64,000 nucleotides of DNA from Candidatus Scalinduaceae bacterium (GCA_046759445.1 JBHICG010000004.1:32001-96000); one strand, 5' to 3'. Positions 16,947 through 64,000 are shown, counted from the stretch's first letter. Translations and numbers: made by a program. Notes: a model not told the origin generated them from the sequence alone.

Positions 16947-17825
16947 ATGTTTCGACTAATAGATATCCTGCACCTTCTCCGCCCGCAAGAGTGGATTAAA
17001 AATACATTTGTTTTTGCCGCCCTAATTTTCTCCCAGCAGCTATTAAACGTAATGGATGTTCTGAAAGTGATTGGTGCGTTTGTGCTGTTCTGCATGGTAT
17101 CAGGGGTAATTTACATTATAAATGATATCTTTGATCTGGAACATGATAGAGTACATCCGATAAAAAAGGATAGACCTCTTGCTTCGGGACGGATAAATAT
17201 TTCCCTGGCCTGGCTCTTGGCCGTGATTCTGGTAGTGATATCTATGACCTTTTCATTTGCTCTTCAACCAAACTTCATGTTTGTTCTGGTGTTATATTTT
17301 CTGATTAATTTTGCTTATTCTCTTTATCTCAAAGGGATCGTTATTGTGGATGTTATGACTCTGGCTTTTGGTTTTGTTTTAAGGGCTATTGCTGGAGGCG
17401 TGGTGATACAGGTGCCGGTATCTTCATGGTTAATTGTCTGTACTGCTCTAATATCCCTGTTTTTAGGTTTTGGGAAAAGACGACATGAGCTTATTTTACT
17501 AGATGAGGAAGCCGGCAATCATAGAAGTATTTTAAGGGAATACAGTCCCTATTTTTTAGACCAGATGATATCCGTAGTTACGGCTTCGTCGGTTATTGCT
17601 TATACCTTCTATACCATGTCCGAAGAGGTACAGGAAAAACTTCATACTCATTATCTTGGGCTTACGATCCCATTTGTTCTATACGGAATCTTTCGGTATC
17701 TTTACCTGGTACATCAAAAACAAGGTGGCGGGAATCCTGCTCAGGAACTTCTCGCAGACAGGCCCCTTCTTATCAATGGGACACTTTGGGTTCTTGCCGT
17801 AATAGTAATTCTTTATGATTGGTAA
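16947..17825 (+). CDS. UbiA-family polyprenyl-phosphate phosphoribosyltransferase (DPPR synthase-like), copy 1
   Basis: LRPQEWIKN, YIINDIFDLEHDRVHPIKKDRPLASG, LRAIAG, GKRRHEL, FRYLYL; multi-TM. These motifs are characteristic of the Rv3806c-like subfamily. Confidence 0.88.
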   Translation: MFRLIDILHLLRPQEWIKNTFVFAALIFSQQLLNVMDVLKVIGAFVLFCMVSGVIYIINDIFDLEHDRVHPIKKDRPLASGRINISLAWLLAVILVVISMTFSFALQPNFMFVLVLYFLINFAYSLYLKGIVIVDVMTLAFGFVLRAIAGGVVIQVPVSSWLIVCTALISLFLGFGKRRHELILLDEEAGNHRSILREYSPYFLDQMISVVTASSVIAYTFYTMSEEVQEKLHTHYLGLTIPFVLYGIFRYLYLVHQKQGGGNPAQELLADRPLLINGTLWVLAVIVILYDW

Positions 17826-18915
17826 AAATATGACACGATCGATCGTTGTTGTTAAAAGAACAAAACCTGATACTGTTCTTTCTGATTTCGAGGAAATTAT
17901 TCAGGCATCTGGTCTACTGGAGGCTTTAGACTCCTCCCGTGTTACAATTTTGAAGGACAATATTACATGGCATTTCCCTTTCTTAAGCGCTAATACTACT
18001 CCCTGGCAGTTGGAGGGGACCATTTTGGCTCTAAAAAATGCCGGCTTTAACAAACTTGTGGCCGTCCATAATAATACAGTTGTTACAAATCCTTATAAGG
18101 GAGGGATATTAAACAAGCTGACTCCCATCTACAAGAAATATGGCATCGAAGAAAGGTACAACTTCCTGCCTGAAGATATCAAATGGATAACTTATAAACC
18201 GAAGGCAGAGATGCGAGTGCTTAATAATATTTACAAAAAAGGGATTAAAATTCCTGAATTTTTTATTGATAAAAATATTGTTCATCTACCCACCATGAAA
18301 ACCCACATTTACACTCAGATCACAGGAGCTATGAAGAATGCCTTTGGTGGTTTACTTAACACCAGGCGTCACTATACACATAGTGTCATCCACGAGACGT
18401 TAGTTGACCTTTTGGCTATTCAAAAAGAAATTCATGCTGGAATATTTGCGGTGATGGATGGAACGATTTGTGGAAGTGGTCCCGGCCCGAGGACTATGCA
18501 GCCTGTAGAAAAGGATTATATTTTGGCCAGCTCAGACAGCGTAGCCATTGATGCCGTTTCTGCTAAGATGATGGGCTTTAATCCCATGAAGATACCCTTC
18601 ATACGTTTGGCGCATGAAGATGGACTAGGGAAAGGCAACCTGTCACAGATTGAAGTATCAGGAGAGGATATCTCAATGGTTAATTTTGGGTTCCAGGTAG
18701 GGGATAATCTTGCAAGCCTTGTGGGCGATGCCTTCTGGTTCAGTCCTGCCAAAATGTTTCAGAGGCTTCTTTTTCACACTCCATTGGTGTACGCCTTCGT
18801 GCTCGGATCATATATATACCATGATTATGTCTGGTGGCCCTTTAAGGGTAAAAGAAAAATGGCTGAAATCAGTGAAACCAAATGGGGGAAATTATTTGCC
18901 TCATACGATAGTTAA
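17815..18915 (+). CDS. DUF362 domain protein (no fused ferredoxin)
   Basis: LKDN, TTP, LPTMKTH, ITGAMKNAFG, MDG..CGSGPGP, DSVAIDAV; overlaps the UbiA stop (alternative start 17830). Confidence 0.85.
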   Translation: MIGKNMTRSIVVVKRTKPDTVLSDFEEIIQASGLLEALDSSRVTILKDNITWHFPFLSANTTPWQLEGTILALKNAGFNKLVAVHNNTVVTNPYKGGILNKLTPIYKKYGIEERYNFLPEDIKWITYKPKAEMRVLNNIYKKGIKIPEFFIDKNIVHLPTMKTHIYTQITGAMKNAFGGLLNTRRHYTHSVIHETLVDLLAIQKEIHAGIFAVMDGTICGSGPGPRTMQPVEKDYILASSDSVAIDAVSAKMMGFNPMKIPFIRLAHEDGLGKGNLSQIEVSGEDISMVNFGFQVGDNLASLVGDAFWFSPAKMFQRLLFHTPLVYAFVLGSYIYHDYVWWPFKGKRKMAEISETKWGKLFASYDS

Positions 18916-18972
18916 AATATAAGGGATATTATCATTTCTAAGATTGTATTGGAGTTTTGTATTTAAAAAAAT

Positions 18973-20175
18973 ATGAAGGAGAAGAAAAAAATGAAAAAAG
19001 GACTAATTTTAATATTCGTATTAATTGCATTTTTCACTTTGAGTATCTCAACAATTATTCAAACAGACGAAAGAATGAATCAGGCGTTCGCGGGACAATA
19101 TTATGATGAGCCATTAACAGATGCTCCACCCCTCACTGATTCCGATGACATCTCCGATGCTGCGCCAGAAGATAAACCAATTAAAGATTCCCAGTCTATT
19201 TCAGATTCTGATATTACTTACGACACTACCCCTCTACCACAGATTACTGAGCACAGTGAACAGGCCATCAAGACTTCAGGGGAGTATCTGGGACAGAAAT
19301 GGTTTATCGATGAGAACCATCTTCTGTGGTGGGATGGAGAGCCATATATTCCTTATGGATTGAATGCGGCGCTAACCCCTAAAGATGGAATCAAGGATTT
19401 TGCAATATGGAGCGACCCCGATTTTTTGGGAACTGATTCAGAGCGGTTCGAGTGGCTTGACAGATTAACGGATAAGATTACTGAACAGGGAGGAACCTAT
19501 TTTATGCTCTTCCTCTTAAATCCGGAATTAAGGGATCTTTCTGATTTAAATAAGCCCAGGGTAAAGTCACAAATTGAATTAAAATGGAGAAAATTTGCGC
19601 CGGCGGTAAGAAAAAAAGGTTTGAGAGCAATCACATTTTTTAATGAGATTAATATGCTAAAGGCATCTCGAACTATCAGTTTAAAAGAGTATGGACGGAT
19701 TTTAAATGACTATGCAAAGAGTCTGAAAGAGATAGTAGGAAATGTGCCTGTAATATTAAAGATTGGCGGTGATTGGAATATTGAGCCAATAATGGTAACA
19801 ATTCAGGGTGATTACGTCGATGGTCTTGGAGGGGATTTCTTTGCGAGCGAACCAGATGAGAATTTAAAAAGACAGATGGTCAAACCTACAACTTTACTAA
19901 ATCAATCTAAGAAAACCAAGCTTTTCTGGATTACCGAATTAAGTAGAGCGGCGGGAGGAGATGCCGGTACACTCTGGCTTAAATTTGAAAATAAGAATAA
20001 CATGAGAAGCTTCCTTAAGGCTTTTTTGTTATATGGAGCAACAGGCTTCTTTTACTTTGACATACATCCGACTGCAGATGGATATGCTCAAGTAACTCAG
20101 GAGACGGCGAAATGGTTTCGGGAACTAAAGTCTGAGGTAGTTAAAGAGATTTTATCCTTTAAGAAAGGCGGTTAA
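18973..20175 (+). CDS. Exported/membrane-anchored protein with an acidic linker and a putative clan GH-A-like TIM-barrel glycoside hydrolase domain
   Basis: Basic N-terminus followed by a hydrophobic segment; D/S/P/T-rich linker; WDGEPYIPYGLN, FFNEIN, WITELS, GATGFFYF. Confidence 0.55.
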   Translation: MKEKKKMKKGLILIFVLIAFFTLSISTIIQTDERMNQAFAGQYYDEPLTDAPPLTDSDDISDAAPEDKPIKDSQSISDSDITYDTTPLPQITEHSEQAIKTSGEYLGQKWFIDENHLLWWDGEPYIPYGLNAALTPKDGIKDFAIWSDPDFLGTDSERFEWLDRLTDKITEQGGTYFMLFLLNPELRDLSDLNKPRVKSQIELKWRKFAPAVRKKGLRAITFFNEINMLKASRTISLKEYGRILNDYAKSLKEIVGNVPVILKIGGDWNIEPIMVTIQGDYVDGLGGDFFASEPDENLKRQMVKPTTLLNQSKKTKLFWITELSRAAGGDAGTLWLKFENKNNMRSFLKAFLLYGATGFFYFDIHPTADGYAQVTQETAKWFRELKSEVVKEILSFKKGG

Positions 20176-20362
20176 TTTATACAAAGCTGTGAAATTAATA
20201 TGAAGATAAATAACAAGTAGTTAGGTTTTGCTTAAAAGGCCGGCTTTTAGACAATTTCGATAAGTAATGGGAAAAGGCAAATTATTGAAATGGATATTTA
20301 AGGGGATTGTCTTTTCCTCTTACTCATAAACTTGAATTTTCTTTAGCATTGTCCCTTTTGTT

Positions 20363-21799
20363 TTGATTGATGAGATGAATAAATACCTTATTATACTTTC
20401 TAGAGTTAAAAATCCCTTGGATCTTAGATTCAAGAAGGACGAAATTTATGGTTCATCTTTATTCAAGATTGTTGCCATTTTATCCCTTGGATGTATGTTA
20501 GGGTTTGTGACATACAAATTAAAATATATTGCTCCTTTTCTCTTGTTGGGCGTTTTTGGTATAACATTAGCTGGCATCTATTCAGAAATCGGAATCGTTA
20601 TTTTTCTCCTGATAATCAATCTCAGTTTCTTACAAGCTATGAATGTTCCTTATGTTAAATTGTCTTTCATAGGTTTTTTTGCCATGTGGTGGTTATATTT
20701 CCTTGGGAATAGATTGAAAATCACTCGTTCTAATCAGATGACCTTCCTCATGGTATTGTATATTTCGTTGTTTATATTGTCGTTCCTATCTGGTGGCAAC
20801 TTTTTTGGTAAGATTGGTGGTGGGTTGAACTATTATTCTAATATGTTCTTTGCATTCGTGATCATGACCACGATCAGGGCAGAGGAACAGGTAAGGAAAT
20901 TTTTGGATCTGTTAATTCTGTGGGGTGTTTTTCTGGCCGCTATTGGGGTTATTCAATTTGTTACAAAACGTCCCCTTTTCCCAGGAGCTGTTTCAGAAGG
21001 TGGTCTCCCGGTCACGGGGAGTACCATAGGCGATACTGTATTTTATGCCGTTCATATGCAATTTGTCATAATCTTGTGCTTTTACAAGCTATTGTATAAA
21101 TATAATAACAAAGAAAAGATAGTTCCCATTCTTTTCGTCCTTATTTTATTAGTACTGGGTTGGGCCTTTAGTTTTAATAGAGTAACTATGGTTAGTTTTG
21201 TAGTGGCTATCTTTGTTATTGCTCATTTGCATGGTCAAAAAAAGAAAGCGTTATTGTTTTTGTTAATAGCCTTGATATTTATATATATATTTGCTCCCAG
21301 GTTTTTCTCTCAGATGTATAGCATTATTACTTCTATTTTGTATCCTGCAGGCACCCATTGGGAGGGTAGATTAAATCTTACCATGGCTGGCTTGAAAGCA
21401 ATTAAAGATTATCCGTTAGCTTTATTGACAGGATTTGGGCCAGGACAATACGTTAATGTAATCATGCCATATTTAACTCCATGGCAAAAGTTGAATTTAG
21501 GAGGTACAGGTAGCATGTTTCCTGTCTATCTGTTGGTGGAGATTGGGATATTCGGAACGGCTTTATTTTTCTGGTTCATATGGTTAACACTCAAAGATCT
21601 TTTTAATGTACAAAAGTTGTTTGAACAACGCAAGAGACATGATATGTTTTTAATTACTCAGGGTTTATTTGTAGCTTTTATAAGCCTATTGATTACAAGT
21701 TTTACAGGCCCTCCTCACCTCTTTTTTGCCTTCTGGATACCCATTGCAATGGTAGCAGTTTTAAACAACTTGTGTCAGAAAAAGATGGCAAATCAATAG
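20363..21799 (+). CDS. O-antigen ligase / Wzy-like polymerase family membrane protein
   Basis: About 12 TM segments; SFNR, GRLNL..AGL.AIKDYP...GFGPGQY, LLVEIGIFG (Wzy_C-like loop). Confidence 0.75.
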   Translation: MIDEMNKYLIILSRVKNPLDLRFKKDEIYGSSLFKIVAILSLGCMLGFVTYKLKYIAPFLLLGVFGITLAGIYSEIGIVIFLLIINLSFLQAMNVPYVKLSFIGFFAMWWLYFLGNRLKITRSNQMTFLMVLYISLFILSFLSGGNFFGKIGGGLNYYSNMFFAFVIMTTIRAEEQVRKFLDLLILWGVFLAAIGVIQFVTKRPLFPGAVSEGGLPVTGSTIGDTVFYAVHMQFVIILCFYKLLYKYNNKEKIVPILFVLILLVLGWAFSFNRVTMVSFVVAIFVIAHLHGQKKKALLFLLIALIFIYIFAPRFFSQMYSIITSILYPAGTHWEGRLNLTMAGLKAIKDYPLALLTGFGPGQYVNVIMPYLTPWQKLNLGGTGSMFPVYLLVEIGIFGTALFFWFIWLTLKDLFNVQKLFEQRKRHDMFLITQGLFVAFISLLITSFTGPPHLFFAFWIPIAMVAVLNNLCQKKMANQ

Positions 21800-21917: not shown

Positions 21918-24257
21918 ATGAGTATGAGAATCAATAAGTTATCGATTATTGAGGATAAATGTCCTAATTTCTGGGTGATGGTTATTTTATTCCTTTTGCA
22001 GTTGATGTTGTTGTGGAGAATGATTTTTTTAAACCAGTTTCCTCTAGATTGGGACCTTATGGGGCAGATATATCCGTGGAGGGTTATCTCTGCCAAGATG
22101 ATTAAGGATGGGATTATACCCTTGTGGAATCCTTATATTTTAAGCGGCACACCTCTCTTAGCCGATATGTTGAGCGGAGTATTTTATCCCCTCAATCTTC
22201 TTTTTTTAATCCTGACGCCGTTTACGGCCATGAAGTTAAACTATTTTATACATTATTTTCTAATGGGAATCTTTACGTATTTTTTTTGTATATCTATTAA
22301 AATGGATAGATTCGGTGGATTGATTGCGGCCACTATTTTTCCCTTTAGTCTTTATGTCTTCTCTAGAGAGACTCTTGCTACAAATACTACTGTCCTGGCT
22401 TCAATAACCTGGTTGCCCCTTTTGTTTATGCTAGTCGAACGATTATTGGCAAAAAACAGGTTGACAATTTCAATGTTATTAGGGGTCGTCCTTGCTTTAC
22501 AGTTTCTTGCCGGACATCCCCAAATTGCTTATTATTCAACGTTGTCTCTCATATTATATCTGGTTTTTAGGTGCTACAGTGAAAAAAGGGAGTGGCGTAA
22601 AATTCTTAAATCGTGTTTCCTTCTTGCCTTCGCTCTTTTTCTCGGCGTGTTTTTGTCTGCTGTTCAAATATTACCTACGATTGAGTTTACAACACTGAGT
22701 TACAGGGGATGGAATCAGGATGTACTTGGGGGCCTGGGTCCCAGCGACTTCTTTCGCCTGGGAGGGGTATATGTGGGTATAGTACCTCTAATACTGATTT
22801 TACCTTTACTCATATTCCAAAGGAATATGTATGCATTTTTTTTCTTTGCGCTTATCATTATAAGTTTTCTGGTAATGGTTGAATTTACTCATTTTTCTTC
22901 TTTGTTATCTCGTATTATCCCCTTTTTCCGAACCTTTTATGGAGCAAATAGGGTAATTTTCCTCTATATCTTTTCTGTGTCTATACTGGCTGGGATTGGA
23001 GTAAACACCTTGATAGAGAACTTTGATACAGAAAAAAAGGATTATCTGGCAAAACTCTGTAAGTTTATGGCATTTTTCAGCATACTCCTAGTATTTGTCT
23101 TAGTTTTTGCCTATTGGGGGAGAGAAGTTATCTTTTCTTTGTCTTTAAAGGTGATTTCAAATATTACGAGTTCTGCTGAAACTAGCGAAAAATTATATAA
23201 AATTCACTCATCTTTTATCTCCTTAATGTGGTTTTCGCTCTCGGTCATCATTCTTAGTATGGCCCTCGTATTTCTTCGATTAAGAAATAAGTTCGGTAAT
23301 CACTTATTTATGGCAGGTATTTTGTTGCTTGTCCTGGCCGTCCTTTTGATACAAGAAAAACCAACTAATGTTGACTTAAGAGTATATTTTGAGAAAACTG
23401 AGGCGACTAAATTTTTAAAAAACCACAATAAATATCAACGAATAGATGCCATTGACCCAAAATATGTTATAGATAGGCCACAATTAAACTTTTTCGTTCC
23501 TAATATTAACAGTATACACAATATTTACGGGATCCGCGGATATACCCCACTTCATATGTCTTATTATCTGGAATTTATAGACCTGATAAATGGAGCTGGA
23601 GTGGATTCATCTCTTTATAGGAGTGGAGAGAAAAAGCGTTTTTTATGGGTAGACAACTTTAAGTCTAAATTAGTTGACCTATTAAATGTCAGATATATAG
23701 TTACCAGTAAAGGAATAAAAGATCCACAATTTAATCTTGTCTATGCAGATGATATTAAAATCTACGAAAATAAAAATGTGCTTGAAAGAGCATTTATGGT
23801 ATACGATTATAAAGTAATTAAAGACAAACAAGGAATTTTGTCAGAACTTGGGAGTGATGATTTTAATCCCAGAAAGGTGGTAATACTGGAAAGAGAACCT
23901 CAAAAAGTTTTGAAGAATGAAGGTGATTTATCAGTATCACAACTCGATAGCGTTGACATAATTACCTATCTTCCCAATGAGGTAGTTATTCAGACTGAAT
24001 CGGATAGGGGTGGATTCTTAGTATTGGGTGATACTTATTATCCAGGTTGGAAGGTGTTTGTGGATAGGAATGAAGACGTAATATATAAAGCGAACTACAT
24101 CTTGAGAGGTGTATACTTAGATGAAGGGTCCCATACCATTAAGTTTATCTATGATCCCATTTCTTTTAAGTTAGGATGGATTGTAAGCTTGACAACATTG
24201 GTTGGCATATCGCTATTTTTCCTGTGTTGCATCTGGCCTTTGAGGTTAGAGAGGTAA
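21918..24257 (+). CDS. YfhO-family GT-C-type membrane protein
   Basis: G.IPLWNPYILSGTPLLA...FYPLN, AGHPQ, LSAVQILP..EF, DLLNVRYI, DTYYPGWKV, ANYILRGV...G.HTIKF.YDP.SF..G. Confidence 0.88.
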   Translation: MSMRINKLSIIEDKCPNFWVMVILFLLQLMLLWRMIFLNQFPLDWDLMGQIYPWRVISAKMIKDGIIPLWNPYILSGTPLLADMLSGVFYPLNLLFLILTPFTAMKLNYFIHYFLMGIFTYFFCISIKMDRFGGLIAATIFPFSLYVFSRETLATNTTVLASITWLPLLFMLVERLLAKNRLTISMLLGVVLALQFLAGHPQIAYYSTLSLILYLVFRCYSEKREWRKILKSCFLLAFALFLGVFLSAVQILPTIEFTTLSYRGWNQDVLGGLGPSDFFRLGGVYVGIVPLILILPLLIFQRNMYAFFFFALIIISFLVMVEFTHFSSLLSRIIPFFRTFYGANRVIFLYIFSVSILAGIGVNTLIENFDTEKKDYLAKLCKFMAFFSILLVFVLVFAYWGREVIFSLSLKVISNITSSAETSEKLYKIHSSFISLMWFSLSVIILSMALVFLRLRNKFGNHLFMAGILLLVLAVLLIQEKPTNVDLRVYFEKTEATKFLKNHNKYQRIDAIDPKYVIDRPQLNFFVPNINSIHNIYGIRGYTPLHMSYYLEFIDLINGAGVDSSLYRSGEKKRFLWVDNFKSKLVDLLNVRYIVTSKGIKDPQFNLVYADDIKIYENKNVLERAFMVYDYKVIKDKQGILSELGSDDFNPRKVVILEREPQKVLKNEGDLSVSQLDSVDIITYLPNEVVIQTESDRGGFLVLGDTYYPGWKVFVDRNEDVIYKANYILRGVYLDEGSHTIKFIYDPISFKLGWIVSLTTLVGISLFFLCCIWPLRLER

Positions 24258-24363: not shown

Positions 24364-25305
24364 ATGAATATTTTGCCATACTTAAAGGTAATGCGCATCG
24401 ATCATTACCACAAGAATGTTTTTGTAATTGTTGGTATTGTCGTATTCTTTAAGGTCGCTGATGCAAAAATAGACATACCCCTTTTATTCAAACTTTTTGG
24501 GGCAATACTCATTGCTTGTATTGCATCATCCTTTAATTATATTATAAACGAATTACTAGATTCGGACTCAGATAAATTTCATCCGAAAAAAAAACATAGG
24601 CCTGTTCCATCAGGAGATACCAACATATATGTTGTTTTAACTATAAGCGTCTGTATTTTATTGGTTACTTTATGTTTAAGCTTCTTCTACTACAGCATGT
24701 ATTTTTTTATAACACTAATTTTGTTTTTCCTTTTAGCAATTCTATATAATGTGCCGCCCCTTCGGTTTAAGGATGTTGTATACATGGATGTAGTAATTGA
24801 ATCAGCTAATGCCCCCATTAGAATATTATTGGGTTGGTATGCAATTGGGACGAATATGCTTCCAAAATTATCAGTTCTGGTATCGGTTTGGTGTCTAGGT
24901 GGTTTTCTTATGACGGCAAAACGATATGCTGAGCATAAATTTATATCAAATGACTCTGACAGGGGCATGTATAGAAGGTCTTATAACACTTATACAAGTG
25001 AAATATTGTCTACTTATATGGTTTTCTGGCTTATCCTTTTCAATTTTGCATTTGGTATATTTATTGTACGTATAGAACCCGCAACATTAGTAGTATCTCC
25101 ATTTTTAATAACTTTTTTTATCTGGTATTGGTGGTTATCGACGAAACCCGATTCTATAGTTAAAGAGCCAGAAAGGGTCTTTGAAGAAAAGGGATTTTTT
25201 GTTTATTCGGTATTTCTTTCAATCCTTTTTGGTGTCGTTTTTTTATTCGGCAGTGAAATTCCCTTGATTGATTATATTCACCATCGCTATCTTTTCCCCA
25301 AATAA
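24364..25305 (+). CDS. UbiA-family polyprenyl-phosphate phosphoribosyltransferase-like, copy 2
   Basis: R...YHKN, YIINELLDSDSDKFHPKKKHRPVPSG, YNVPPLRFKD, AKRYAE; multi-TM. Confidence 0.8.
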   Translation: MNILPYLKVMRIDHYHKNVFVIVGIVVFFKVADAKIDIPLLFKLFGAILIACIASSFNYIINELLDSDSDKFHPKKKHRPVPSGDTNIYVVLTISVCILLVTLCLSFFYYSMYFFITLILFFLLAILYNVPPLRFKDVVYMDVVIESANAPIRILLGWYAIGTNMLPKLSVLVSVWCLGGFLMTAKRYAEHKFISNDSDRGMYRRSYNTYTSEILSTYMVFWLILFNFAFGIFIVRIEPATLVVSPFLITFFIWYWWLSTKPDSIVKEPERVFEEKGFFVYSVFLSILFGVVFLFGSEIPLIDYIHHRYLFPK

Positions 25306-27751: not shown

Positions 27752-27761
27752 TTACTTATTA

Positions 27762-30763: not shown

Positions 30764-30774
30764 GGGGATGCGTA

Positions 30775-32088: not shown

Positions 32089-32172
32089 GAAATTGTAAAC
32101 TAGCGTACAGAGAAAAAACCTTATTGTTCTCTTTGATTAATCAAGATTTGTTCTGAGGTTTGGAGTTATAAT

Positions 32173-49957: not shown

Positions 49958-49961
49958 AATT

Positions 49962-53087: not shown

Positions 53088-53426
53088 ATGAGGAAGATTA
53101 TTTCTATATTTTTTATCTTTTCATTGCTCCCTTCTCTTTCTCGAGCAGTCGAACTAAAAAACACTAGTTTTTTCATGAAGAGTGTTGGCCAGGCTGACTA
53201 TATAGAAGGAGAGATGCTGGTGAAATATAGGAAAGAAGTTTCTTTGGAGAGAATAGAAGCTATCAATAGTCAATTTGGAGTGGAGGTGATAAAGGTAATG
53301 CCTAGAATTGACGTTTATCATGTTAAGATTCCACCAGATACTACAGTGATTGATATGGTCGAGAAATATTCGAATATTCCTGAAGTAGAATTTGCAGAAC
53401 CAAATTATCAGATGAGGATTGACTAA
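53088..53426 (+). CDS. Small secreted protein consisting of a stand-alone subtilase (S8) propeptide-like domain
   Basis: Signal peptide MRKIISIFFIFSLLPSLSRA; YIEGEMLVKY...VYHVKIP...Y...PEVEFAEPNY followed shortly by a stop. Confidence 0.7.
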   Translation: MRKIISIFFIFSLLPSLSRAVELKNTSFFMKSVGQADYIEGEMLVKYRKEVSLERIEAINSQFGVEVIKVMPRIDVYHVKIPPDTTVIDMVEKYSNIPEVEFAEPNYQMRID

Positions 53427-54922: not shown

Positions 54923-57021
54923 AATCACTCTCCGACATATCACTGCTGTTTTTAATACTATTATCTAAAATTGTTTTACAGGTATTTATTCTTAGGGATG
55001 GATTTATTGCAGTGTCCGGTGATGACTTTTTAAGGACTCTTATCTCTTATGAATGGTCTAAGGAACCGTTTATGGCTTCTACCTCCTTTGGTGAGGTTTC
55101 TGCTACATGGATGCCTCTTCATTTTTGGATTGTTGGTTCCTTACTAAAGATTTACATGGATTTATGGGTAATTCCAGCATTAGTAAGCCTCATTTTTTCT
55201 CTATTAACGTTAGTCATGCTATATTTAATAGCTCAACACCTTTTTAATAGTAAGGTTGGGTTGATAACAGTTCTTCTGGCAGGATTTTTTCCCTGGGAAG
55301 TATGGTTGAGTGTTTCAGGAACGGCAGCTACGATTTATCAATTTACAATTGTTACTGGTATATATTACGTATTGAAGTGGGAGGGAAGTAAAAAATCCAA
55401 TAGTAAAATATTATTTTTAGCATCCCTTGCTTTTTTGGCATCGACTATGTTGAGACCGGGAGGTTGGATTTTTACGGTCGTATTTAGTTCATATCTCTTG
55501 TACCTTATTTTTACCCGGTCAAAGAGTCCCACTGTTTATGCCAATAATGGTAATAGTAAAGAAAAATCAACAGTTACAGGAGGGTTTAAAGTTCTGGGGG
55601 GATTTACCAATTGGAAAAAGATAGAGCACAAGGGATTCATGACCATTGCAATGATTCTTTCATGGCTATTTATTGGTTATTGGTTATATTTTAATTACAC
55701 TGCTTATGGTGATTTTCTCTATTTTGTCAAGCAGAGTCAACAGAGCTATCAAATGGAAGCCGCAAACCTGGATTCGCTGGCTATTAGAATCTTTAAGTAT
55801 CCGGTGATTATGTTCTTTGTATCTCCTATCATTTTTTTTTTGAGTGTCTTTTCCTTGGTGTATTTTATAAGGTCTTGGAGCAAGGCAGGTGTTGCAAGAA
55901 TTTACCTATTTTTCATCCTAGCTGGACTTTTACTGTTGATATTAGGAAGCGTTCTTGGTTCTGGTACCAGGAGTACTCCGCAGAGGTATGTGATATTAAA
56001 TCTAATTCTGTTCATTCCGCTTGTATCGTACATGTTTGATAACTATCTTAAACGAGATGGGTGGAAGAGTATAATATCAGTGGCTATAGCGCTTATACTT
56101 GGCCTAAATATCGTATTAAGTTTTAATTACCCGACGGCATACAGTGATGAAGCGAAGGTGGGAAGATTCTTAAGGGATCAATGGAGGGAAAGGAGACTTA
56201 GTGAGGAAGAGATGGTTAGTGCAGAAAGGACCTTTCAGGCATACAGTAATATTCCGCTTACGGGTTATTTAGAAAGAATGTATTCGTTGACAAATCGCTG
56301 GGCTATGCAAGTTCTGTCAAATCATCCCGAAAATTTTGTTTTTAGTATAATAGAAGATATTGATTTAGACTTGAATATGAATCGGCGAAAAATTGCCGAA
56401 TATTTTCAAAAACGTAAAATTAAATTGATTACCGTAAAATCTGAAGAAGCTGTAAAGAAGATTCCTAAGGCCTTCAATTTTGTTGGCACTGTCGGGGGGT
56501 ACATGTTGTTCTCTGATGAATCAGATATTTTCAAAGGGTCAATACCTTCTCATTTAGGCAAGATTAACTATAAGATAATGAAGAATTTTGGTAATGCTGT
56601 AACTCTTTTAGGTTATAATGTTGATAATGGTTCCTTTCCGAGATATATATCGCTGTACTTGAAGCTCTTGAAAAAGACAGAAATAGACTATAGATTTTCT
56701 GTTAAATATATAGATACCGTGGAGAAAAATATACACCACTCGGTCATTACAGCCCCACACTATGGTGCATATAATACAAGCCAGTGGAAAACAAATGAAG
56801 TCATAGAAGAACGTTTATATTTTCCTTATAAAGATGAGCTTGTACCAGATGAATATATACTAAGGCTATCTCTTATAGACCCTTATGGTGAGATGGTCGG
56901 AAAAGAATTGGATATAGGTCCCTTTTATGTTATATCATCAAAACGGGCTGTAATTAAGGAATTCTTAACTGGGGGAAAAAGAGACCCATGGCTCCTTTTC
57001 AGGGTTTTGATTACTCTTTAA
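54916..57021 (+). CDS. Putative GT-C glycosyltransferase with a C-terminal extracytoplasmic beta domain
   Basis: SGDDFLR after TM1, WMPLHFW, MLRP.GW, QRY; C-terminal FG..VTLLGY...TSQWK.NEVIEE...Y.LRL.L domain. Confidence 0.7.
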   Translation: MLKSLSDISLLFLILLSKIVLQVFILRDGFIAVSGDDFLRTLISYEWSKEPFMASTSFGEVSATWMPLHFWIVGSLLKIYMDLWVIPALVSLIFSLLTLVMLYLIAQHLFNSKVGLITVLLAGFFPWEVWLSVSGTAATIYQFTIVTGIYYVLKWEGSKKSNSKILFLASLAFLASTMLRPGGWIFTVVFSSYLLYLIFTRSKSPTVYANNGNSKEKSTVTGGFKVLGGFTNWKKIEHKGFMTIAMILSWLFIGYWLYFNYTAYGDFLYFVKQSQQSYQMEAANLDSLAIRIFKYPVIMFFVSPIIFFLSVFSLVYFIRSWSKAGVARIYLFFILAGLLLLILGSVLGSGTRSTPQRYVILNLILFIPLVSYMFDNYLKRDGWKSIISVAIALILGLNIVLSFNYPTAYSDEAKVGRFLRDQWRERRLSEEEMVSAERTFQAYSNIPLTGYLERMYSLTNRWAMQVLSNHPENFVFSIIEDIDLDLNMNRRKIAEYFQKRKIKLITVKSEEAVKKIPKAFNFVGTVGGYMLFSDESDIFKGSIPSHLGKINYKIMKNFGNAVTLLGYNVDNGSFPRYISLYLKLLKKTEIDYRFSVKYIDTVEKNIHHSVITAPHYGAYNTSQWKTNEVIEERLYFPYKDELVPDEYILRLSLIDPYGEMVGKELDIGPFYVISSKRAVIKEFLTGGKRDPWLLFRVLITL

Positions 57022-58131: not shown

Positions 58132-59238
58132 ATGGCGACAAAACGGATTATCATGATTGAGCCTTGTGGTAAACGTGGTATAATTCATTATACCCATAAT
58201 TTAAGTAACGAATTAGTCAGACTTGGTCATCAAGTCTTATTGGTTACTTCCTTAGGCTTTGAAACAAAGGGGCTGAGGAGAAACTATCAGGCTATAGAGG
58301 TTTTTGACAGGTTTATGCCCCATCCTTTCAGGTTCTGTAATTTCCTAATAAGAACGGTACGGATTAAACCCGACATTATACACCTTCAAGGTGCAATACA
58401 TCCCATTTTATATTTTTTTTTACTGAAGGTGTTGAGAAGGATATCCAGGGCTAAGTTCATCTATACAGCCCATGAGGTTATTCCAAAGGGCAAGAAATGG
58501 TATGGAAACTATGGTTTACTTACGAGACTGTACCAGATTGTCAATAGTATTATAGTTCATGCAAATACATCCAAAGAGGAAATTGTAGGGTATTTCAATA
58601 TAAAACCTGAAAAGATTTTTATTTCATTGCATGGAAACTATATTTTTTTTAGAAAGATAAGTGATGATATAGAAGATAGCATAGAGAGATGCAGCAATCA
58701 AAAGGTAATCCTTTTTTTTGGGATAATTGAGGAAAGAAAAGGATTGATATACTTGATCCGGGCATTTTCTCAGGTGAGGAAAAAGATTTATAATGTAAGG
58801 CTTCTCATAGTTGGACAACCATTTGAGGATGTAACCCCTTATTTGAAAGAGATTAAAATATTGAATCTTCAGAGTTGGGTGGATACCCACTTTGAGTATA
58901 TTCCTGTAAAGGAAGTATCTAAGTATTTTAGGTTTGCTGACATTGTTGTTCTTCCATATATTTATGCTTCTCAGAGTGGCGTAATAGCAGCAGCTTATTC
59001 TTTTGCTAAGCCCGTAATAGCGACTAATTGTGGAGGATTATCTGAGATGGTTGAGGATGGAAAGAGTGGTTTTATCGTGCCAGCTAAAGATGTTGAAAGC
59101 CTAACCTCTGCTATGGTAAAGATATTAAAGGATGATATTTTGAGGGATAGAATGGGAAAGTATGCAGAAAGATTAGCCAGAGAGAAATTCTCCTGGGATA
59201 AGATTGCCAAGGGTATCGAGAGGATCTATGAGTCTTAA
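58132..59238 (+). CDS. GT4 glycosyltransferase
   Basis: PDIIHLQ, YTAHEV.P, FFGII..RKGL, VLPY..ASQSGV, KPVIATNCGGL.E. Confidence 0.9.
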   Translation: MATKRIIMIEPCGKRGIIHYTHNLSNELVRLGHQVLLVTSLGFETKGLRRNYQAIEVFDRFMPHPFRFCNFLIRTVRIKPDIIHLQGAIHPILYFFLLKVLRRISRAKFIYTAHEVIPKGKKWYGNYGLLTRLYQIVNSIIVHANTSKEEIVGYFNIKPEKIFISLHGNYIFFRKISDDIEDSIERCSNQKVILFFGIIEERKGLIYLIRAFSQVRKKIYNVRLLIVGQPFEDVTPYLKEIKILNLQSWVDTHFEYIPVKEVSKYFRFADIVVLPYIYASQSGVIAAAYSFAKPVIATNCGGLSEMVEDGKSGFIVPAKDVESLTSAMVKILKDDILRDRMGKYAERLAREKFSWDKIAKGIERIYES

Positions 59239-59929
59239 ACCAGAGTTATCCATCGTAATCCCTCTTTTTAATGAAGAAAGAAATGTTGAGGTAGTAACAA
59301 AAGAACTTGTTGCAGAACTCGAAGTAAATGAAATAACTTATGAGTTAATACTCGTAGATAATGGTTCTTTTGATAGAACATCAAGGATAATAGAGGAATT
59401 AGTTGATGAAAACCCTAGAATAAAACCAATTTATTTATCTCAAAATCAAGGTTATGGAGGAGGGATTCTGGCTGGGCTGAGTGAATGTAATGGAAGGTAT
59501 ATAGGTTATATGTGGGGAGATAGGCAGGTAGTTGCCAAGGATGTTATAAGGATATTTAAGAAACTTAAAGACGAGGGATTAGATTTATGTAAATCTATTC
59601 GCATCGAGCGCCATGATGGACTGAAAAGAAAGATTATTACGAAGGCATACAATTTTATATTCCCCTTTTTCTTTAGTGTATCTTCGAGGGACATAAACGG
59701 TTGTCCGAAGATGTTCAAAAGCGAACGTTTCTACGAACTCAATATTACATTGAGGGACTGGTTTATAGACCCGGAGATAATGGTTAAATCTCAAAAGAGG
59801 AATTTCAAGATCGGTGAGGTACCTGTGATCTTTTATAGTAGGAATCACGGATCTTCAAATGTTAGATTATGTACTGTTTTCGAATTCATTAAGAATATGA
59901 TTTATTTTAAATTTAAAGGGATATTATGA
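59228..59929 (+). CDS. GT2, DPM1-like polyprenol-phosphate glycosyltransferase
   Basis: LSIVIPLFNEE, VDNGSFD, NQGYGGG, DINGCPK, FIDPE, EVPV.F..R..GSS. Start reassigned to ATG 59228. Confidence 0.88.
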   Translation: MSLKPELSIVIPLFNEERNVEVVTKELVAELEVNEITYELILVDNGSFDRTSRIIEELVDENPRIKPIYLSQNQGYGGGILAGLSECNGRYIGYMWGDRQVVAKDVIRIFKKLKDEGLDLCKSIRIERHDGLKRKIITKAYNFIFPFFFSVSSRDINGCPKMFKSERFYELNITLRDWFIDPEIMVKSQKRNFKIGEVPVIFYSRNHGSSNVRLCTVFEFIKNMIYFKFKGIL

Positions 59930-59934
59930 CATTC

Positions 59935-60372: not shown

Positions 60373-61350
60373 ATGGCTGGTAATCTAAAGGATATAAGTG
60401 CTTTTGTGACAGGTGCTACTGGATTTATAGGATCTCATCTAACCAGGAGACTTGTCCATGAAGGCGCTGAGGTTTCCATAATCGCGAGACCAAATTCAAA
60501 AACATTCAGAATTGATGACATATTGGATAAAATAAGAATATACCGCCTGGATCTTATTGATTTTAATCTGGTTAAACAAGCAGTTAAAGATACGAAGCCC
60601 CAAAAGGTCTTCCATCTGGCAGGACATACTAATGTGGAAAGAGGTTTTAAAACAGCCAATGATTCGGTCAAAGATGTTCAATATACAGTGAATTTGCTTA
60701 GAAGCCTTCAGGATATAGCCCACGATTGTTTCATTTATACCGGAACCTGCGAGGAATACGGTGATAATCCAGCCCCTTTCAGAGAAGACCAAAACCCTAA
60801 TCCTGTCTCAGCATATTCTGCATCTAGGGTAGCCTCAACAGCATATTGTCAGATGTTCCACAAGACCCTTGGATGTCCCATTATTATCTTGCGTCCTTTC
60901 TTTACGTATGGACCATATCAAAAAGCTTCAAGATTTATTTCAAACGTGATTTTATCCGGATTAAAAGGCGAAGTCTTAAATATGACATGGGGGGAACAGA
61001 CGAGGGAGTTTAATTATGTTTCTGATATCGTGGACGGATTCATAAAGGCATCTGTTAATAAAGAGGCCATTGGAGAAATTATCAATATCGGGAATGGTAT
61101 TGAATTTACATTGAAAGAAATGGTTGAAAAAGTATCCGCTATAATGGGAAATCGATTGAAGGTTAAATATGGAGCTTTGCCGTATAGGCCAGGTGAAACA
61201 TGGCATTTTTACTGCGATAATACTAAAGCTAAAAGACTATTGAACTGGGAGCCAAAGATGGACCTGGAAACTGGCTTGAGGATGACTATAGATTGGTACA
61301 CTAAGTTTTATAAGATTTTACTTAAGGAAGAGTCTTGTGAAGGGTGTTAG
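60373..61350 (+). CDS. NAD-dependent nucleotide-sugar epimerase/dehydratase/reductase (extended SDR)
   Basis: VTGATGFIGSHL, HLAG, GTCEEYG, YSASR, LRPF.TYGP, GEQTREFNYV.D, NIGNG. Confidence 0.9.
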   Translation: MAGNLKDISAFVTGATGFIGSHLTRRLVHEGAEVSIIARPNSKTFRIDDILDKIRIYRLDLIDFNLVKQAVKDTKPQKVFHLAGHTNVERGFKTANDSVKDVQYTVNLLRSLQDIAHDCFIYTGTCEEYGDNPAPFREDQNPNPVSAYSASRVASTAYCQMFHKTLGCPIIILRPFFTYGPYQKASRFISNVILSGLKGEVLNMTWGEQTREFNYVSDIVDGFIKASVNKEAIGEIINIGNGIEFTLKEMVEKVSAIMGNRLKVKYGALPYRPGETWHFYCDNTKAKRLLNWEPKMDLETGLRMTIDWYTKFYKILLKEESCEGC

Positions 61351-61735
61351 GTTGATTAAATTAGACAAGAAGGAAGATCATAGAGGATGGTTTCTAAAGA
61401 TATTGATGAATCATCAAATCGAAGGGAAAAGAGAGTTTGGAGAGATATATTTGAGTACTGCGTACCCTGGAGAAACAAAAGGGAATCACTATCATAATTT
61501 TGCAACTGAGTGGTTTTGCCTAATCAAAGGAAAAGCGATTCTTTCGTTAATGGACATAAAAACTAAACAGAAAGAGAATATAATGCTTGGAGAAGAGATT
61601 CCTATGACAATAGAAGTATCTCCACAGATTGCCCATTCAGTAAAAAATCAAGGAGAAGATTCGTTGTTTCTTCTCGCTTACTCTGATACGCCATATGATC
61701 AACAGAACGCTGATAGTATCCCCTTCTCATTATAA
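61337..61735 (+). CDS. Sugar-nucleotide epimerase/isomerase cupin (WxcM / CapF-cupin-like)
   Basis: DHRGWF, FGEIYLSTAYPGETKGNHYH...EWFCLIKG, P.IAH.VKN. Confidence 0.8.
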   Translation: MKGVRLIKLDKKEDHRGWFLKILMNHQIEGKREFGEIYLSTAYPGETKGNHYHNFATEWFCLIKGKAILSLMDIKTKQKENIMLGEEIPMTIEVSPQIAHSVKNQGEDSLFLLAYSDTPYDQQNADSIPFSL

Positions 61736-61755
61736 ATTTTTCTTACAAACCTCCT

Positions 61756-62724
61756 ATGATATCTGTAATTGTTCCAGTTTATAATGGAGAGAAGACAATT
61801 GAGAGTTGTATAAAATCTCTCCAGAATCAGTCCTGTCCCAATGAAACGTATGAGATTATAGTTGTTGATGATGGTTCTACAGACAGTTCACCTAATATCT
61901 TAGAAGGATTAGGCATTAGGTTTATTACTCAGCCAAATAGAGGGCCAGCAACAGCAAGGAACAGAGGTGCTCAAATAGCGAAAGGCAATATCCTGCTCTT
62001 TACGGATGCGGATTGCGTTGCTGATAAAAGATGGATAGAAGAGATGGTTAGACCTTTTAGTAATCCTGAGATAGTCGGTGTAAAAGGTTCGTACAAGACT
62101 TTACAAAAGGAGCTAATTGCCAGATTTGCGCAAGCCGAGTTTGAAGAGAGATATCGACTACAAAAGAGATTTGAATTTATAGACTTTGTTGATTCGTATT
62201 CGGCAGGTTTCAGGAAGGATGTCTTTTTTGAAATTGGTGGATTTGATGAAAGTTTTCCATTACCTGACCATGAGGATGTTGATCTATCTTATAGGCTTTC
62301 CAGAGCTGGAAAGAAGATGGTTTTCAATCCAAAGGCATTTATATATCATCAGCATCCAAACAGTTTGATAAGGTATTTAAGGATAAAGTTTCGGCGAGCT
62401 TTTTGGAGAATGGTCGTTTATAAGAGATATCCAGAAAAAATATTGAAAGACACATACACACCCCCGAATTTAAAATTTCAGGTATTGTTTTTCTATTGTA
62501 TTATATTTTCTTTTTTAGGAGCCTTTTTTAGTTATTATTTTGTATGTATTTTTATAATTGCTCTTCTTCTGTTTTTTTTTACAACTATAAATTTTACATT
62601 AATTATCCTTAAAGATGATATGCGAGTAGGCCTTTTAGCTCCAGTTTTCCTCTTTTTGCGGGCATCTGCCCTTGGTTTTGGTATAATCTATGGGGTAGTT
62701 TTCTGGAAGAATCGTATTACTTAG
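61756..62724 (+). CDS. GT2 glycosyltransferase with C-terminal TM helices
   Basis: SVIVPVYN, VVDDGSTD, NRGPATARN.GA, FTDADC, GGFDESF, EDVDL.YRL. Confidence 0.9.
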   Translation: MISVIVPVYNGEKTIESCIKSLQNQSCPNETYEIIVVDDGSTDSSPNILEGLGIRFITQPNRGPATARNRGAQIAKGNILLFTDADCVADKRWIEEMVRPFSNPEIVGVKGSYKTLQKELIARFAQAEFEERYRLQKRFEFIDFVDSYSAGFRKDVFFEIGGFDESFPLPDHEDVDLSYRLSRAGKKMVFNPKAFIYHQHPNSLIRYLRIKFRRAFWRMVVYKRYPEKILKDTYTPPNLKFQVLFFYCIIFSFLGAFFSYYFVCIFIIALLLFFFTTINFTLIILKDDMRVGLLAPVFLFLRASALGFGIIYGVVFWKNRIT

Positions 62725-62727
62725 TGG

Positions 62728-62860
62728 TAAATACGGTGACGTATTTTAACTGTCATGATATTGAGACTCTTCACTTCGTTTAGAGTGACAGGCGCTGTCA
62801 TTCTGAGGATCGAAGTGACGAAGAATCTCTTGCTCGAAAGACAATACGTAACCGTATTTA
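62728..62860. mobile_element. MITE-like element enclosing TGTCA-type REP palindromes
   Basis: 17/18 inverted repeat TAAATACGGTGACGTATT / AATACGTAACCGTATTTA; internal GAGACTCTTCACTTCGTTTAGAGTGACA and TGTCATTCTGAG...GAAGAATCTC. Confidence 0.65.
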
Positions 62861-62933
62861 TGAAATGTAGTACTTAGTTTTTGTTACTGAAAATATTTAT
62901 AAATATTTTCTATTTTTTGGTGAGATTATTTCA

Positions 62934-64000
62934 ATGATAAATAAAAAAAAATGTATTTCCTGTATGGTCTTCATCTTGTTTGATGTCTTTGGTGTCTATT
63001 CAGCCGTTTATCTAACTTACTATTTAAGGATCCTTTTAAATCCTTTATTTACCTTAAACTTTTCCATTGAGAATATAAGTGATTACTTTATCAATCCTTT
63101 CATTGTAATTATCATATGGGTTATTGTTTCAACACAAAGCGGCTTGTATGATCTGAAAAACATCGGTTCTTTTAAAAATTGGATAAAAACACTAAATGCC
63201 AGCTTTATTACTTTAGTTTTTTTAATAACCATTTCATTTATACTCAAAAAAGAAGAGATATCTAGATCGTTAATAATTTTATTTATTTTTTTTAATATAA
63301 TATCTGTCAGCTTCTTTCGTTTTTTAGGTTGTAAAGTATTATCATGGTTTAAGGAAAAAGGGGTTTGGGGTGAGAGGGTTGCCATAATTGGGGAGAATAT
63401 ACATGTCACAGAAATAGCTCATCTTCTGAGAAAAAGAGGGCGTTTAGGAACTATATTTAGTGGTCACATTACTTTAAATTCAAAAAAACTCAATTTGCCA
63501 CAGAATTTTGACAGTGAACTTGTTTTGGGTAGTATTGACGATGTAGAAAGTATAGTGAGAAAACATAATATTAATAGAGTAATATTTGTTGATAAATCTC
63601 TATCAGAGGAGAAGCTGTTTCCTTTAATTGAGTTCTGTGAAAAACTTAATGTTACCTTTGAGATCTTGCCAGATCTCTATAATCTTACAGCAAGTAAGAT
63701 AAATGATGAGATAGAAGGGATTCCCTTAATACAACTTAGAGGATTTCACTTACCAAGAAGTGTTCTTTTAGTTAAAAGAACACTCGAAACCACGATTAGT
63801 TTAATATTATGCATTTTATTGTTACCTTTTCTTATATTGGTACCTGTTTTGATAAAGTTAGAATCTAAAGGGTCAATGATCTTTAGACAAAAGCGCTATG
63901 GGAAAAATGGAATGATTTTCACATTTTATAAGTTCAGATCTATGGCCGAGGATGCTTATGTTAAAAGGACTGATCTAAAGGAGTATAATGAAAAGGGTGA
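62934..64000 (+). CDS. Polyprenyl-phosphate sugar phosphotransferase (WcaJ/WbaP-like initiating enzyme), 3' end runs off the window
   Basis: Not in the ORF track. Manual translation from ATG 62934 gives N-terminal TM segments, RVAIIG, IEGIPLIQL...VKRTLE...IKLESKG..IFRQKRYGKNG..FTFYKFRSM in the same frame. Confidence 0.9.
   Translation, partial: MINKKKCISCMVFILFDVFGVYSAVYLTYYLRILLNPLFTLNFSIENISDYFINPFIVIIIWVIVSTQSGLYDLKNIGSFKNWIKTLNASFITLVFLITISFILKKEEISRSLIILFIFFNIISVSFFRFLGCKVLSWFKEKGVWGERVAIIGENIHVTEIAHLLRKRGRLGTIFSGHITLNSKKLNLPQNFDSELVLGSIDDVESIVRKHNINRVIFVDKSLSEEKLFPLIEFCEKLNVTFEILPDLYNLTASKINDEIEGIPLIQLRGFHLPRSVLLVKRTLETTISLILCILLLPFLILVPVLIKLESKGSMIFRQKRYGKNGMIFTFYKFRSMAEDAYVKRTDLKEYNEKG

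Follow-up and report, generated by a model that had tools for sequence, protein, structure and literature searches.

What does an anammox bacterium build with a 60-kb run of co-directional glycan genes, and from which sugar donors? The question is raised by a 64,000-nucleotide stretch of DNA from Candidatus Scalinduaceae bacterium (GCA_046759445.1, JBHICG010000004.1:32001-96000), here called the window, which is contig C4:32001-96000 of a 3.62-Mb assembly (37% GC, 97% complete, 145 contigs). Coordinates refer to the window unless another contig is named. A hydrazine synthase alpha match above cut-off in the genome indicates that the host is an anammox bacterium. From position 16947 the window carries what we read, with a probability of roughly 0.6, as a strain-variable anammox surface-glycan locus with lipid-linked donors, decoration by glycosyltransferases (GTs) of the GT-C type, a putative epimerase of the DUF362 family and predicted tailoring by radical S-adenosylmethionine (rSAM) enzymes. 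An earlier annotation of the sequence (the original prediction) had proposed a system that makes lipid-linked donors, tailors them by radical chemistry and transfers them to a surface glycan. The lipid-linked donors and the GT-C surface-glycan locus are supported by the present analysis; the specific reactions, the acceptor and tailoring on the lipid-linked donor stay at the level of prediction.

The plus-strand run extends from 16947 to 76495 (about 60 kb, 43 genes, 92% coding) and stops at a minus-strand GT4 gene. Within the window, the 35 genes annotated from 16947 onwards all lie on the plus strand, and 10 of the 42 gene junctions in the run overlap or abut, with 18 within 30 nt. The unidirectional locus of overlapping or abutting genes described in the original prediction was therefore recovered and runs past its 47 kb. 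A co-directional run on contig C10 is longer (66.8 kb) and also rich in glycan genes, so co-direction of the locus is unremarkable. Pfam and NCBIfam analysis of the window part revealed nine GT-Cs, three DPM-like GT2s, one further GT2, two GT4s, Wzx, Wzy_C, an initiating phosphoglycosyltransferase (PGT), AsnB, two NAD-dependent epimerases, a cupin, two UbiA proteins and eight rSAM enzymes. Genes beyond those listed originally are DUF362 (17815), a GH-A-like gene (18973), AsnB (39547), the GT4s, the NAD-dependent epimerases and the cupin. The count of about nine GT-Cs was confirmed, with eight PF13231 (PMT_2) proteins and one YfhO-like protein (21918), each with 7 to 14 hydrophobic segments. 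A tenth candidate of 1313 aa with a long repeated soluble tail lies past the window (65148-69089); it is weakly similar to 21918 and gave no Pfam or NCBIfam match.

Within 47 kb the locus holds 8 of the genome's 13 PF13231 matches (0.17 expected, Poisson P ~1e-11) and 8 of its 71 PF04055 matches above cut-off (0.9 expected, P ~6e-6). The densest PF13231 groups among five relatives numbered four or five; GT-C counts in relatives are lower bounds because the GT-C profiles miss some PF13231 proteins there. Glycan loci of relatives carry 21 rSAM genes in 120 kb (G003), 15 in 100 kb (G024), 11 in 80 kb (G004), 10 in 80 kb (G010), 9 in 40 kb (G022) and 7 in 100 kb (G016). The uniqueness implied by the original prediction was thus overstated for the rSAM genes; the GT-C count is what stands out in this locus. 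The genes of the backbone and GT-C arms are as follows.

20363..21799, plus strand: Wzy_C protein of the O-antigen ligase, polymerase or O-oligosaccharyltransferase type (PF04932, 40.6 vs 31.7 bits).
21918..24257, plus strand: GT-C, YfhO-like (PF09586, 44.5 vs 28.5 bits; 13 hydrophobic segments).
28706..33876, plus strand: three GT-Cs (PF13231) at 28706-30763 (LA_3751 family; NF047440, 209.7 vs 200), 30775-32088 and 32173-33876.
36331..39050, plus strand: GT-C (36331-38190, PF13231) and, overlapping it, a DPM-like GT2 that has a pair of C-terminal helices (38187-39050, PF00535).
42882-44606, plus strand: GT-C (PF13231, PF02366).
44704-45870, plus strand: GT4 (PF00534).
46065-47381, plus strand: Wzx flippase (PF01943, 74.6 vs 28.2).
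53576..57021, plus strand: two GT-Cs, 53576-54922 and 54916-57021 (PF13231).
58132..59929, plus strand: GT4 (58132-59238) and DPM-like GT2 (59204-59929), by Pfam/NCBIfam.
62934..64373, crossing the window end at 64000, plus strand: initiating phosphoglycosyltransferase (PF02397, 212 bits).

The PGT, Wzx and Wzy/ligase proteins, all named in the original prediction, exceed their cut-offs (PF02397, PF01943, PF04932), and by its gene families the backbone arm is a predicted Wzx/Wzy-type locus. The PGT would start a backbone unit on undecaprenyl phosphate and GT2 and GT4 enzymes would extend it; Wzx would flip the unit, which the Wzy_C protein would polymerise or ligate. For these steps the gene families are observed, and the pathway order comes from established knowledge. 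Outside the cytoplasm, the roughly ten GT-Cs would decorate the product from polyprenyl-monophosphate sugars. Hexose or amino-sugar donors would be made by the three DPM-like GT2s, which resemble AglJ, PgfS or ArnC, in keeping with the DPM1-like label given to them originally, but fall below all cut-offs. Candidate acceptors are O-antigen/lipopolysaccharide (LPS), a capsule-like exopolysaccharide or a glycoprotein.

The most testable part of the locus is the UbiA-DUF362 module, which is listed here with the two other genes that bear on it.

16947..17825, plus strand: UbiA-family polyprenyl-phosphate 5-phosphoribosyltransferase of the DPPR-synthase type (NF008977, 308 bits vs a cut-off of 234; 292 aa, no fused phosphatase or extra domain; 8 hydrophobic segments).
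17815..18915, plus strand: DUF362 protein with a LarA-like fold, candidate nickel-pincer epimerase (PF04015; overlaps the UbiA stop by 11 nt).
24364..25305, plus strand: second, divergent UbiA-family protein (PF01040; below all DPPR-synthase cut-offs, NF008977 94 vs 234).
27762..28676, plus strand: NAD-dependent epimerase/reductase, an extended short-chain dehydrogenase/reductase (SDR), rival candidate pentose epimerase (PF01370, PF01073; HpnA 89 vs 368).

Two UbiA phosphoribosyltransferases had been predicted. The scores bear this out for 16947; for 24364 the donor-synthase role was overstated. Relatives of the second UbiA were found in 4 of 250 other genomes, two of them adjoining a GT-C (one by a weak match); in G033 the gene order is AsnB, UbiA, GT-C. 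UbiA 16947 would make polyprenyl-phosphoribose-5-phosphate, a phosphatase encoded elsewhere would act on it, and the DUF362 protein would then invert C2 of the ribose by a LarA-type hidden-redox hydride transfer. Since hidden redox in LarA (transient oxidation and return of the hydride) gives the same outcome as the two steps of DprE1 and DprE2, we infer a one-enzyme C2 epimerase. The formation of polyprenyl-phosphate arabinofuranose by this protein is a serious candidate that falls somewhat short of even odds. A shade less probable is the wider proposal that the DUF362 subfamily is a single-protein 2'-epimerase, dependent on the nickel-pincer nucleotide (NPN), which replaces DprE1/DprE2 across many phyla and feeds one of the roughly ten GT-Cs here.

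The distribution of the family across genomes bears on this proposal. At the genome level, the DUF362 subfamily and DprE1 are nearly mutually exclusive in two phyla. In 151 genomes of the host's phylum, DprE1 was found by a protein query (validated by NF053785 at 495/500 bits and by 1e-98 to a solved DprE1) and not by PF04030, which is a weak DprE1 detector. Nine of these genomes encoded DUF362, 46 a DPPR synthase and 35 DprE1-like genes. Of the nine DUF362 genomes, eight also encoded DPPR synthase (46/151 overall) and none DprE1, vs 25 of the 46 synthase genomes. In the second phylum, that of an Aminicenantaceae record, DUF362 was found in 85 and DprE1 in 44 of 251 genomes, and both in a single genome (a weak 32% match) vs 14.9 expected. 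Kin genomes are not independent, so the P values of this exclusion are overstated. Family f65 contains one genome with DUF362 and another with DprE1 beside UbiA. The host genome, at 97% completeness, gave no PF04030 match and no match to the validated DprE1 query, and its best DprE2 match reached 22-24%, vs 38-50% for orthologues.

The 17815 protein shares about 70% identity with proteins that bear the labels Nitrospirota, Acidobacteriota, Deltaproteobacteria and Bacteroidota, and its subfamily comprises at least 7,993 proteins; no sequence match was found in the PDB, viral contigs or plasmids. Among the best 80 of 592 metagenome DUF362 loci (30 of the 80 at least 10 kb long), a DPPR-synthase-like UbiA was present in 38 by BLASTP or 40 by tBLASTn, mostly adjacent, and DprE1 was found in none. 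An N-terminal HAD motif (DLDGT) was seen in all seven inspected of the eight long UbiA partners. This result indicates that the phosphatase role is filled in those proteins and that DUF362 is unlikely to be the phosphatase.

The structural model of DUF362 (predicted TM-score 0.84) gave five top VIA matches with Z of 12.7-13.8 over 210-227 residues at an rmsd of 3.2-3.9, vs a next Z of 5.7, and four of the five are titled LarA or racemase. Published work places DUF362 and LarA in one clan, and LarA from Isosphaera is described with His173, Lys183 (cofactor tether) and His199 (nickel). The corresponding DUF362 residues H164, K174 and H189 are invariant in 89 of 89 sequences, with a spacing of H-x9-K-x4-G-x9-H vs H-x9-K-x4-G-x10-H in LarA. 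The top hhalign segment, itself not significant, aligns H164 and K174 in register with LarA. Three DUF362 paralogues of the host (C13:38461-39426, C30:6674-7660, C45:11761-12843) show the same His-x9-Lys core by eye, the distal His having been checked in one; on such motifs, the whole DUF362 family may bind NPN. The host carries larB, larC and larE. One UbiA-DUF362 operon lies ~0.7 kb from larC (G045), and a genome with DprE1 (G052) also has larC near UbiA. One clear LarA was seen in five genomes checked, vs larC in 124 of 151, which indicates that the phylum probably has many further NPN clients. One survey counted about 15% of genomes as producers of the nickel-pincer cofactor that lack a LarA homologue, and presented the identity of their clients as an open question (PMC11796402). 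No function for DUF362 was found in the parts of the literature available to our search, outside which lay subscription journals, theses and patents. NPN-dependent monosaccharide epimerases have reportedly been claimed in unpublished or patent material; these claims are unverified and did not surface in that search.

Several observations weigh against this assignment. The Foldseek TM of DUF362 vs LarA is just 0.36-0.39, and the hhalign profile comparison is not significant (E 0.22-0.23). K174 lies inside the pattern used for the scan, which in part selects for its conservation, and H85, the sole candidate for the first catalytic His of LarA, is kept in 43 of 89 sequences; LarA subfamilies with a single His have been described. 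Cofactor genes are uninformative, since 124 of 151 genomes carry larC, and the host has another NPN client, a group 22 isomerase (NF052515, C75, 517 vs 400 bits). In the 80 metagenome loci, larB was near DUF362 in two and larC or larE in none. In the second phylum, UbiA adjoined DUF362 in 3 of 30 loci (±1.5 kb) and 1 of 20 (±10 kb), figures that refer to the loci and not to whole genomes. Of the 21 UbiA genomes without DprE1, 13 also lack this DUF362, which suggests that plain ribose or other epimerases are common. The exclusion of DUF362 and DprE1 could reflect lineage or oxygen lifestyle. The locus genes include no PRP phosphatase, GtrA/EmrE flippase, Wzz or Wzc. A search limited to the locus genes gave no HAD or PAP2 match, and no small SMR/GtrA-type flippase was found among locus genes or gap open reading frames (ORFs) of at least 40 aa; the PF03706 protein at 73373 is a candidate.

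These observations lead to the main rival of a DUF362 epimerase, namely SDR 27762 or no epimerase at all. The donor would be plain polyprenyl-phosphate ribose, or xylose made by SDR 27762 acting like ORF13 of Citrobacter, DUF362 would have another LarA-like role and the exclusion would follow lifestyle. In the described Citrobacter systems, O1 adds ribofuranose without an epimerase and O2 uses an SDR 3-epimerase (PMC11127046). The 13 of 21 genomes, the weak UbiA linkage in the second phylum and the H/K/H motif in unrelated DUF362 paralogues of the host fit this account. It fits less well with the translational overlap of UbiA and DUF362, the UbiA adjacency in about half of the best 80 loci, the 70% identity across phyla and the swap of DUF362 for DprE1 beside UbiA in family f65. 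We regard it as possible, at about one chance in three.

The eight rSAM genes, with the genes joined to them, are as follows.

25619..26644, plus strand: twitch-type rSAM (PF04055; best NCBIfam PTO1314, 164 vs 306; best PDB match BlsE, 2e-17; C-terminal Cys 257/276/312/315).
26714..27751, plus strand: twitch-type rSAM (PF04055; PTO1314 122 vs 306; Cys 259/277/306/309).
33967-34650, plus strand: DPM-like GT2 (PF00535; AglJ-like, 170 vs 325).
34682-36091, plus strand: B12-domain rSAM (PF02310, PF04055; HpnJ 216 vs 578).
41470-42882, plus strand: AprD4-like rSAM (phmmer 7e-32 and Foldseek TM 0.75 to AprD4 6fd2).
47459..52761, plus strand: twitch rSAM (47459-48538), B12-domain rSAMs (48539-49957 and 49962-51491) and GT-C (51484-52761), with gaps of 0, 4 and -8 nt (PF04055, PF13186, PF02310, PF13231).
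57047-58123, plus strand: twitch rSAM (PF04055, PF13186).

Four twitch and four B12-binding enzymes had been predicted. Eight rSAM genes and four twitch proteins were indeed found, but the B12-binding domain (PF02310) was detected in three only (34682, 48539, 49962), for which cobalamin binding is itself a prediction. The eighth, 41470, gave no Pfam B12-domain match, and the best solved match of its predicted structure (pLDDT 92) is AprD4 (TM 0.75, ~22% structural-alignment identity). A review describes AprD4 as not binding cobalamin (PMC12931638). The four short rSAMs bear C-terminal cysteine sets of the twitch type. These sets presumably liken them to BtrN. All eight fall below every curated NCBIfam cut-off (best 103-216 vs 306-750), including the ladderane model TIGR04072 (80-127 vs 360), and none passes the HpnH, HpnJ, HpnR, AhbD/NirJ, PqqE or AprD4 models. 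The nearest characterised matches, AprD4, BlsE and HpnJ, act on sugars.

Association with glycan genes was observed in two tests that are independent of the choice of regions in relatives. Outside the locus, 10 of the host's 23 B12-class rSAM genes lie within 5 kb of a GT gene, vs 13% of 1576 background genes, and all eight of the most similar paralogues (a threshold set after the list was seen) are near one. In viral contigs, a GT gene was present in 15 of the 23 best rSAM-homologue loci vs 3 of 37 weaker loci; near-duplicates occur among the loci compared. The enzymes thus fail the heme d1, PQQ, hopanoid and lipid models and their closest homologues co-occur with GT genes, so the outcome named as refuting the original prediction did not occur. 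Failure against the named families together with closest homologues beside GT genes makes sugar tailoring likely: the association is observed, and the chemistry of the eight enzymes is predicted. They would tailor nucleoside diphosphate (NDP)- or lipid-linked sugars in the cytoplasm by oxidation, dehydration, C-methylation or ring change. Two findings detract from this view: twitch-class paralogues are linked more weakly to GT genes (4 of 14), and the regions of relatives were picked because they held rSAM matches. Phage-type viral contigs (L277-L298) carry HpnJ/AprD4-like rSAM genes inside clusters of NDP-sugar and GT genes, which hints that glycans of the virion or the host surface undergo radical tailoring.

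Whether the enzymes act on lipid-linked donors is a separate point. They might act solely on soluble NDP-sugars for the Wzx/Wzy backbone, with the GT-C arm using ordinary donors and the two modules merely co-located. The top viral-contig homologues of 41470 have NDP-sugar epimerases and DegT aminotransferases as neighbours, and no GT-C was detected there; the rSAM-rich loci of relatives often have 0-2 detected GT-Cs (lower bounds), and the locus itself holds NDP-sugar enzymes and WecE. Gene order speaks for the other arrangement: a B12-domain rSAM directly follows a DPM-like GT2 (33967, then 34682), rSAM genes overlap GT-C genes (41470/42882, 49962/51484), and 22 of 67 B12-class rSAM genes of relatives have a DPM-like GT2 within two genes, vs a chance estimate of ~12. 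These data give a mild lean to lipid-linked donors, and an exclusive use of soluble sugars is unlikely, at about one chance in four. HpnJ and Cds have been proposed to contract lipid-linked sugars (PMC13459092). In G021, a relative that has neither this DUF362 nor DprE1, a DPPR synthase is directly followed by a B12-class rSAM (C1:1903653-1905960), and two other UbiA loci also have such an enzyme nearby; the G021 enzyme may tailor a lipid-linked pentose.

HpnJ also raises the question of whether the products of the rSAM and GT enzymes are head groups of glycolipids or hopanoids, made by HpnI/HpnJ- or calditol-like ring contraction, and not a polymer. Among NCBIfam models HpnJ scores highest for 34682, 41470, 48539 and each of the 39 proteins in the 41470 subfamily, and SDR 27762 is HpnA-like. 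The HpnJ scores (165-216) stay far below the cut-off of 578, however, the locus has no squalene-hopene cyclase, acyl carrier protein or Fab gene, and the presence of PGT, Wzx and Wzy_C points to a polymer or an oligosaccharide. Head-group synthesis is therefore improbable.

Best matches in the regions of relatives are mostly 23-43% identical. Close orthologues of 41470 or 25619 were found in none of 30 relatives (25-37% identity), whereas homologues of 41470 at 41-48% identity occur in Chloroflexota, Omnitrophota, Acidobacteriota and others, which indicates that parts of the locus come from a wide mobile pool. A contig search with 41470 alone gave just two distant loci. Glycan loci rich in rSAM genes are usual in this lineage and a regular feature of anammox bacteria.

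The genomic position of the locus is peculiar to this host. The first 16.6 kb of the window carry dnaA, dnaN, gyrB, dapF, lysC, deoC and deoB, and the GC-skew sign switches near dnaA. A start about 10 kb from oriC, as originally noted, is real in distance but not conserved. In two genomes of the same genus (G001, G002), the gene directly after deoB has its orthologue here at C1:45036 (71-74% identity) and the locus is absent, so that the position near oriC is specific to the host genome and a meaningful proximity to oriC was rejected. We take the gene after deoB to be MurC-like from its motif. In two further relatives (G003, G016) a 458-aa gene also follows deoB, without BLAST comparison. In C1:40735-46409, a wza-like and a wzc-like gene (C1:40735-43887) and a GT2 gene, named by eye, lie directly upstream of the MurC-like gene; this stretch may represent the opposite end of the original glycan island. 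The location of the relatives' deoB neighbour after a wza/wzc-like pair suggests that the locus is a glycan island at a rearranged site. Continuation of the locus onto C1:1-45000 was rejected, because most genes of that region belong to mobile elements or have housekeeping functions, and no overlap exists between the contig ends.

The number of contigs (145), the many repeats and the two same-genus genomes without the locus after deoB would also fit an artefact of assembly or genes brought together by chance. The deoB-UbiA junction is, however, bridged by single contigs of two DNA runs with even depth (runs that are possibly source samples), the GC content of the locus (35-40%) matches that of the genome (37%), and all reading frames are intact. 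An artefact is very unlikely. No tRNA was found in the window, and predicted promoters and terminators at 16500-36400 were no more frequent than in shuffled sequence (63 vs 69 and 14 vs 14.7). RNA-library contigs of two libraries from another study cover 28/30 and 26/30 bins of 14000-33900; with no silent control, this coverage does not demonstrate transcription.

The remaining features of the run are as follows.

18973..20175, plus strand: N-terminally anchored GH-A-like TIM barrel protein, which possibly hydrolyses glycans or edits chains (Atlas structures of GH2/GH5/GH53 clusters matched at TM 0.55-0.57; no Pfam or NCBIfam match).
39547-41442, plus strand: AsnB-like amidotransferase (TIGR01536, 492 vs 267).
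53088..53426, plus strand: stand-alone subtilase prodomain-like protein with signal peptide (PF22148, 73.8 bits), probably outside the glycan pathway.
60373..62724, plus strand: NDP-sugar epimerase/dehydratase (60373-61350), cupin (61337-61735) and GT2 (61756-62724), by Pfam/NCBIfam.
Past the window to 76495: the 1313-aa GT-C-like protein, ArnC-like GT2, GNAT, PaaK-like ligase, SDR, an LPG-synthase-TM flippase-like protein (PF03706, 139 bits), a methyltransferase and a WecE-type aminotransferase (NF008687, 594 vs 375).

Palindromic repeats occupy the intergenic regions 25306-25618, 39051-39546, 59930-60372 and 62725-62933, with 68, 104, 12 and 20 further BLAST matches in the genome. They are probably repetitive extragenic palindromic (REP) elements or miniature inverted-repeat transposable elements (MITEs) that mark module joins. 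RNA-library contig depth peaks at the first of them. An S8-like protease lies at the contig end (L001 16610-18082), and its C-terminal repeat recurs on many contigs.

If the proposed role of DUF362 is true, a large, highly conserved family gains a function, NPN chemistry is extended to a lipid-linked sugar for the first time, and arabinofuranose donors have a flavin-free route. The literature search, of the scope given above, found no paper on rSAM surface-glycan chemistry in anammox bacteria; the nearest reports dealt with hopanoids and enzymes that modify lipids. A combination of about ten GT-Cs, eight unassigned rSAMs and a LarA-fold synthase partner was also not found in print, the supplementary figures of PMC11127046 lying outside that search.

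Compared with known systems, a Wzx/Wzy-dependent locus is matched by PGT, Wzx and Wzy/ligase; Wzz and Wzc/Wza are absent from the locus, the wza/wzc-like pair being on C1. The three-component pentofuranose systems resemble the locus in their polyprenyl-phosphoribose made from phosphoribosyl pyrophosphate by a UbiA-type synthase, their optional epimerase and GT-C transfer to a surface glycan. In Citrobacter youngae O1/O2 these functions are described as ORF15 (PPPRS-PRP), ORF14 (flippase), ORF12 (GT136) and ORF13 (SDR epimerase) (PMC11127046). The main and supplement text of that work, figures aside, contain no mention of DUF362 or radical SAM in the parts compared. The present locus differs in lacking a fused or adjacent phosphatase and a small flippase, in about ten GT-Cs instead of one (GT-C families identified by Pfam), in a LarA-fold DUF362 at the place of the epimerase and in eight rSAMs. 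Since no phosphatase and small flippase are linked, the locus was not filed as a three-component member. The DPPR synthase/DprE1/DprE2 pathway, described for mycobacterial arabinan and the Pseudomonas TfpW pilin glycan (bioRxiv 10.1101/2020.04.19.049825), shares the first enzyme feeding GT-Cs, but neither DprE1 nor DprE2 was found in the host genome. The LarA superfamily as described (PMC11851776, PMC12611868, PMC11770544, PMC11796402) shares with DUF362 clan CL0471, the N-terminal fold, His-x9-Lys with a distal His and the cofactor genes. Identity is only 6-11%, the LarA C-terminal domain is unaligned, the first catalytic His is not clearly kept, and substrates described there are 2-hydroxy acids and not lipid-linked sugars.

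The sugar-acting rSAMs AprD4, BlsE, HpnJ and MoeK5/GenK/GenD1 are similar in domain architecture and as best solved matches; the eight enzymes here fall below family cut-offs and stand in a surface-glycan locus instead of an antibiotic or hopanoid cluster. BtrN presumably belongs to the same group. The S-layer O-glycan of Kuenenia stuttgartiensis, from another family of anammox bacteria and in that account without assigned genes, is likewise an anammox surface glycan; it is heavily methylated and bears an unidentified 174-Da residue, proposed to be a dimethyl deoxyhexose or a trimethyl pentose (PMC5088730). The rSAM-rich glycan loci stand in a group of bacteria whose one characterised S-layer glycan carries unexplained methylated residues.

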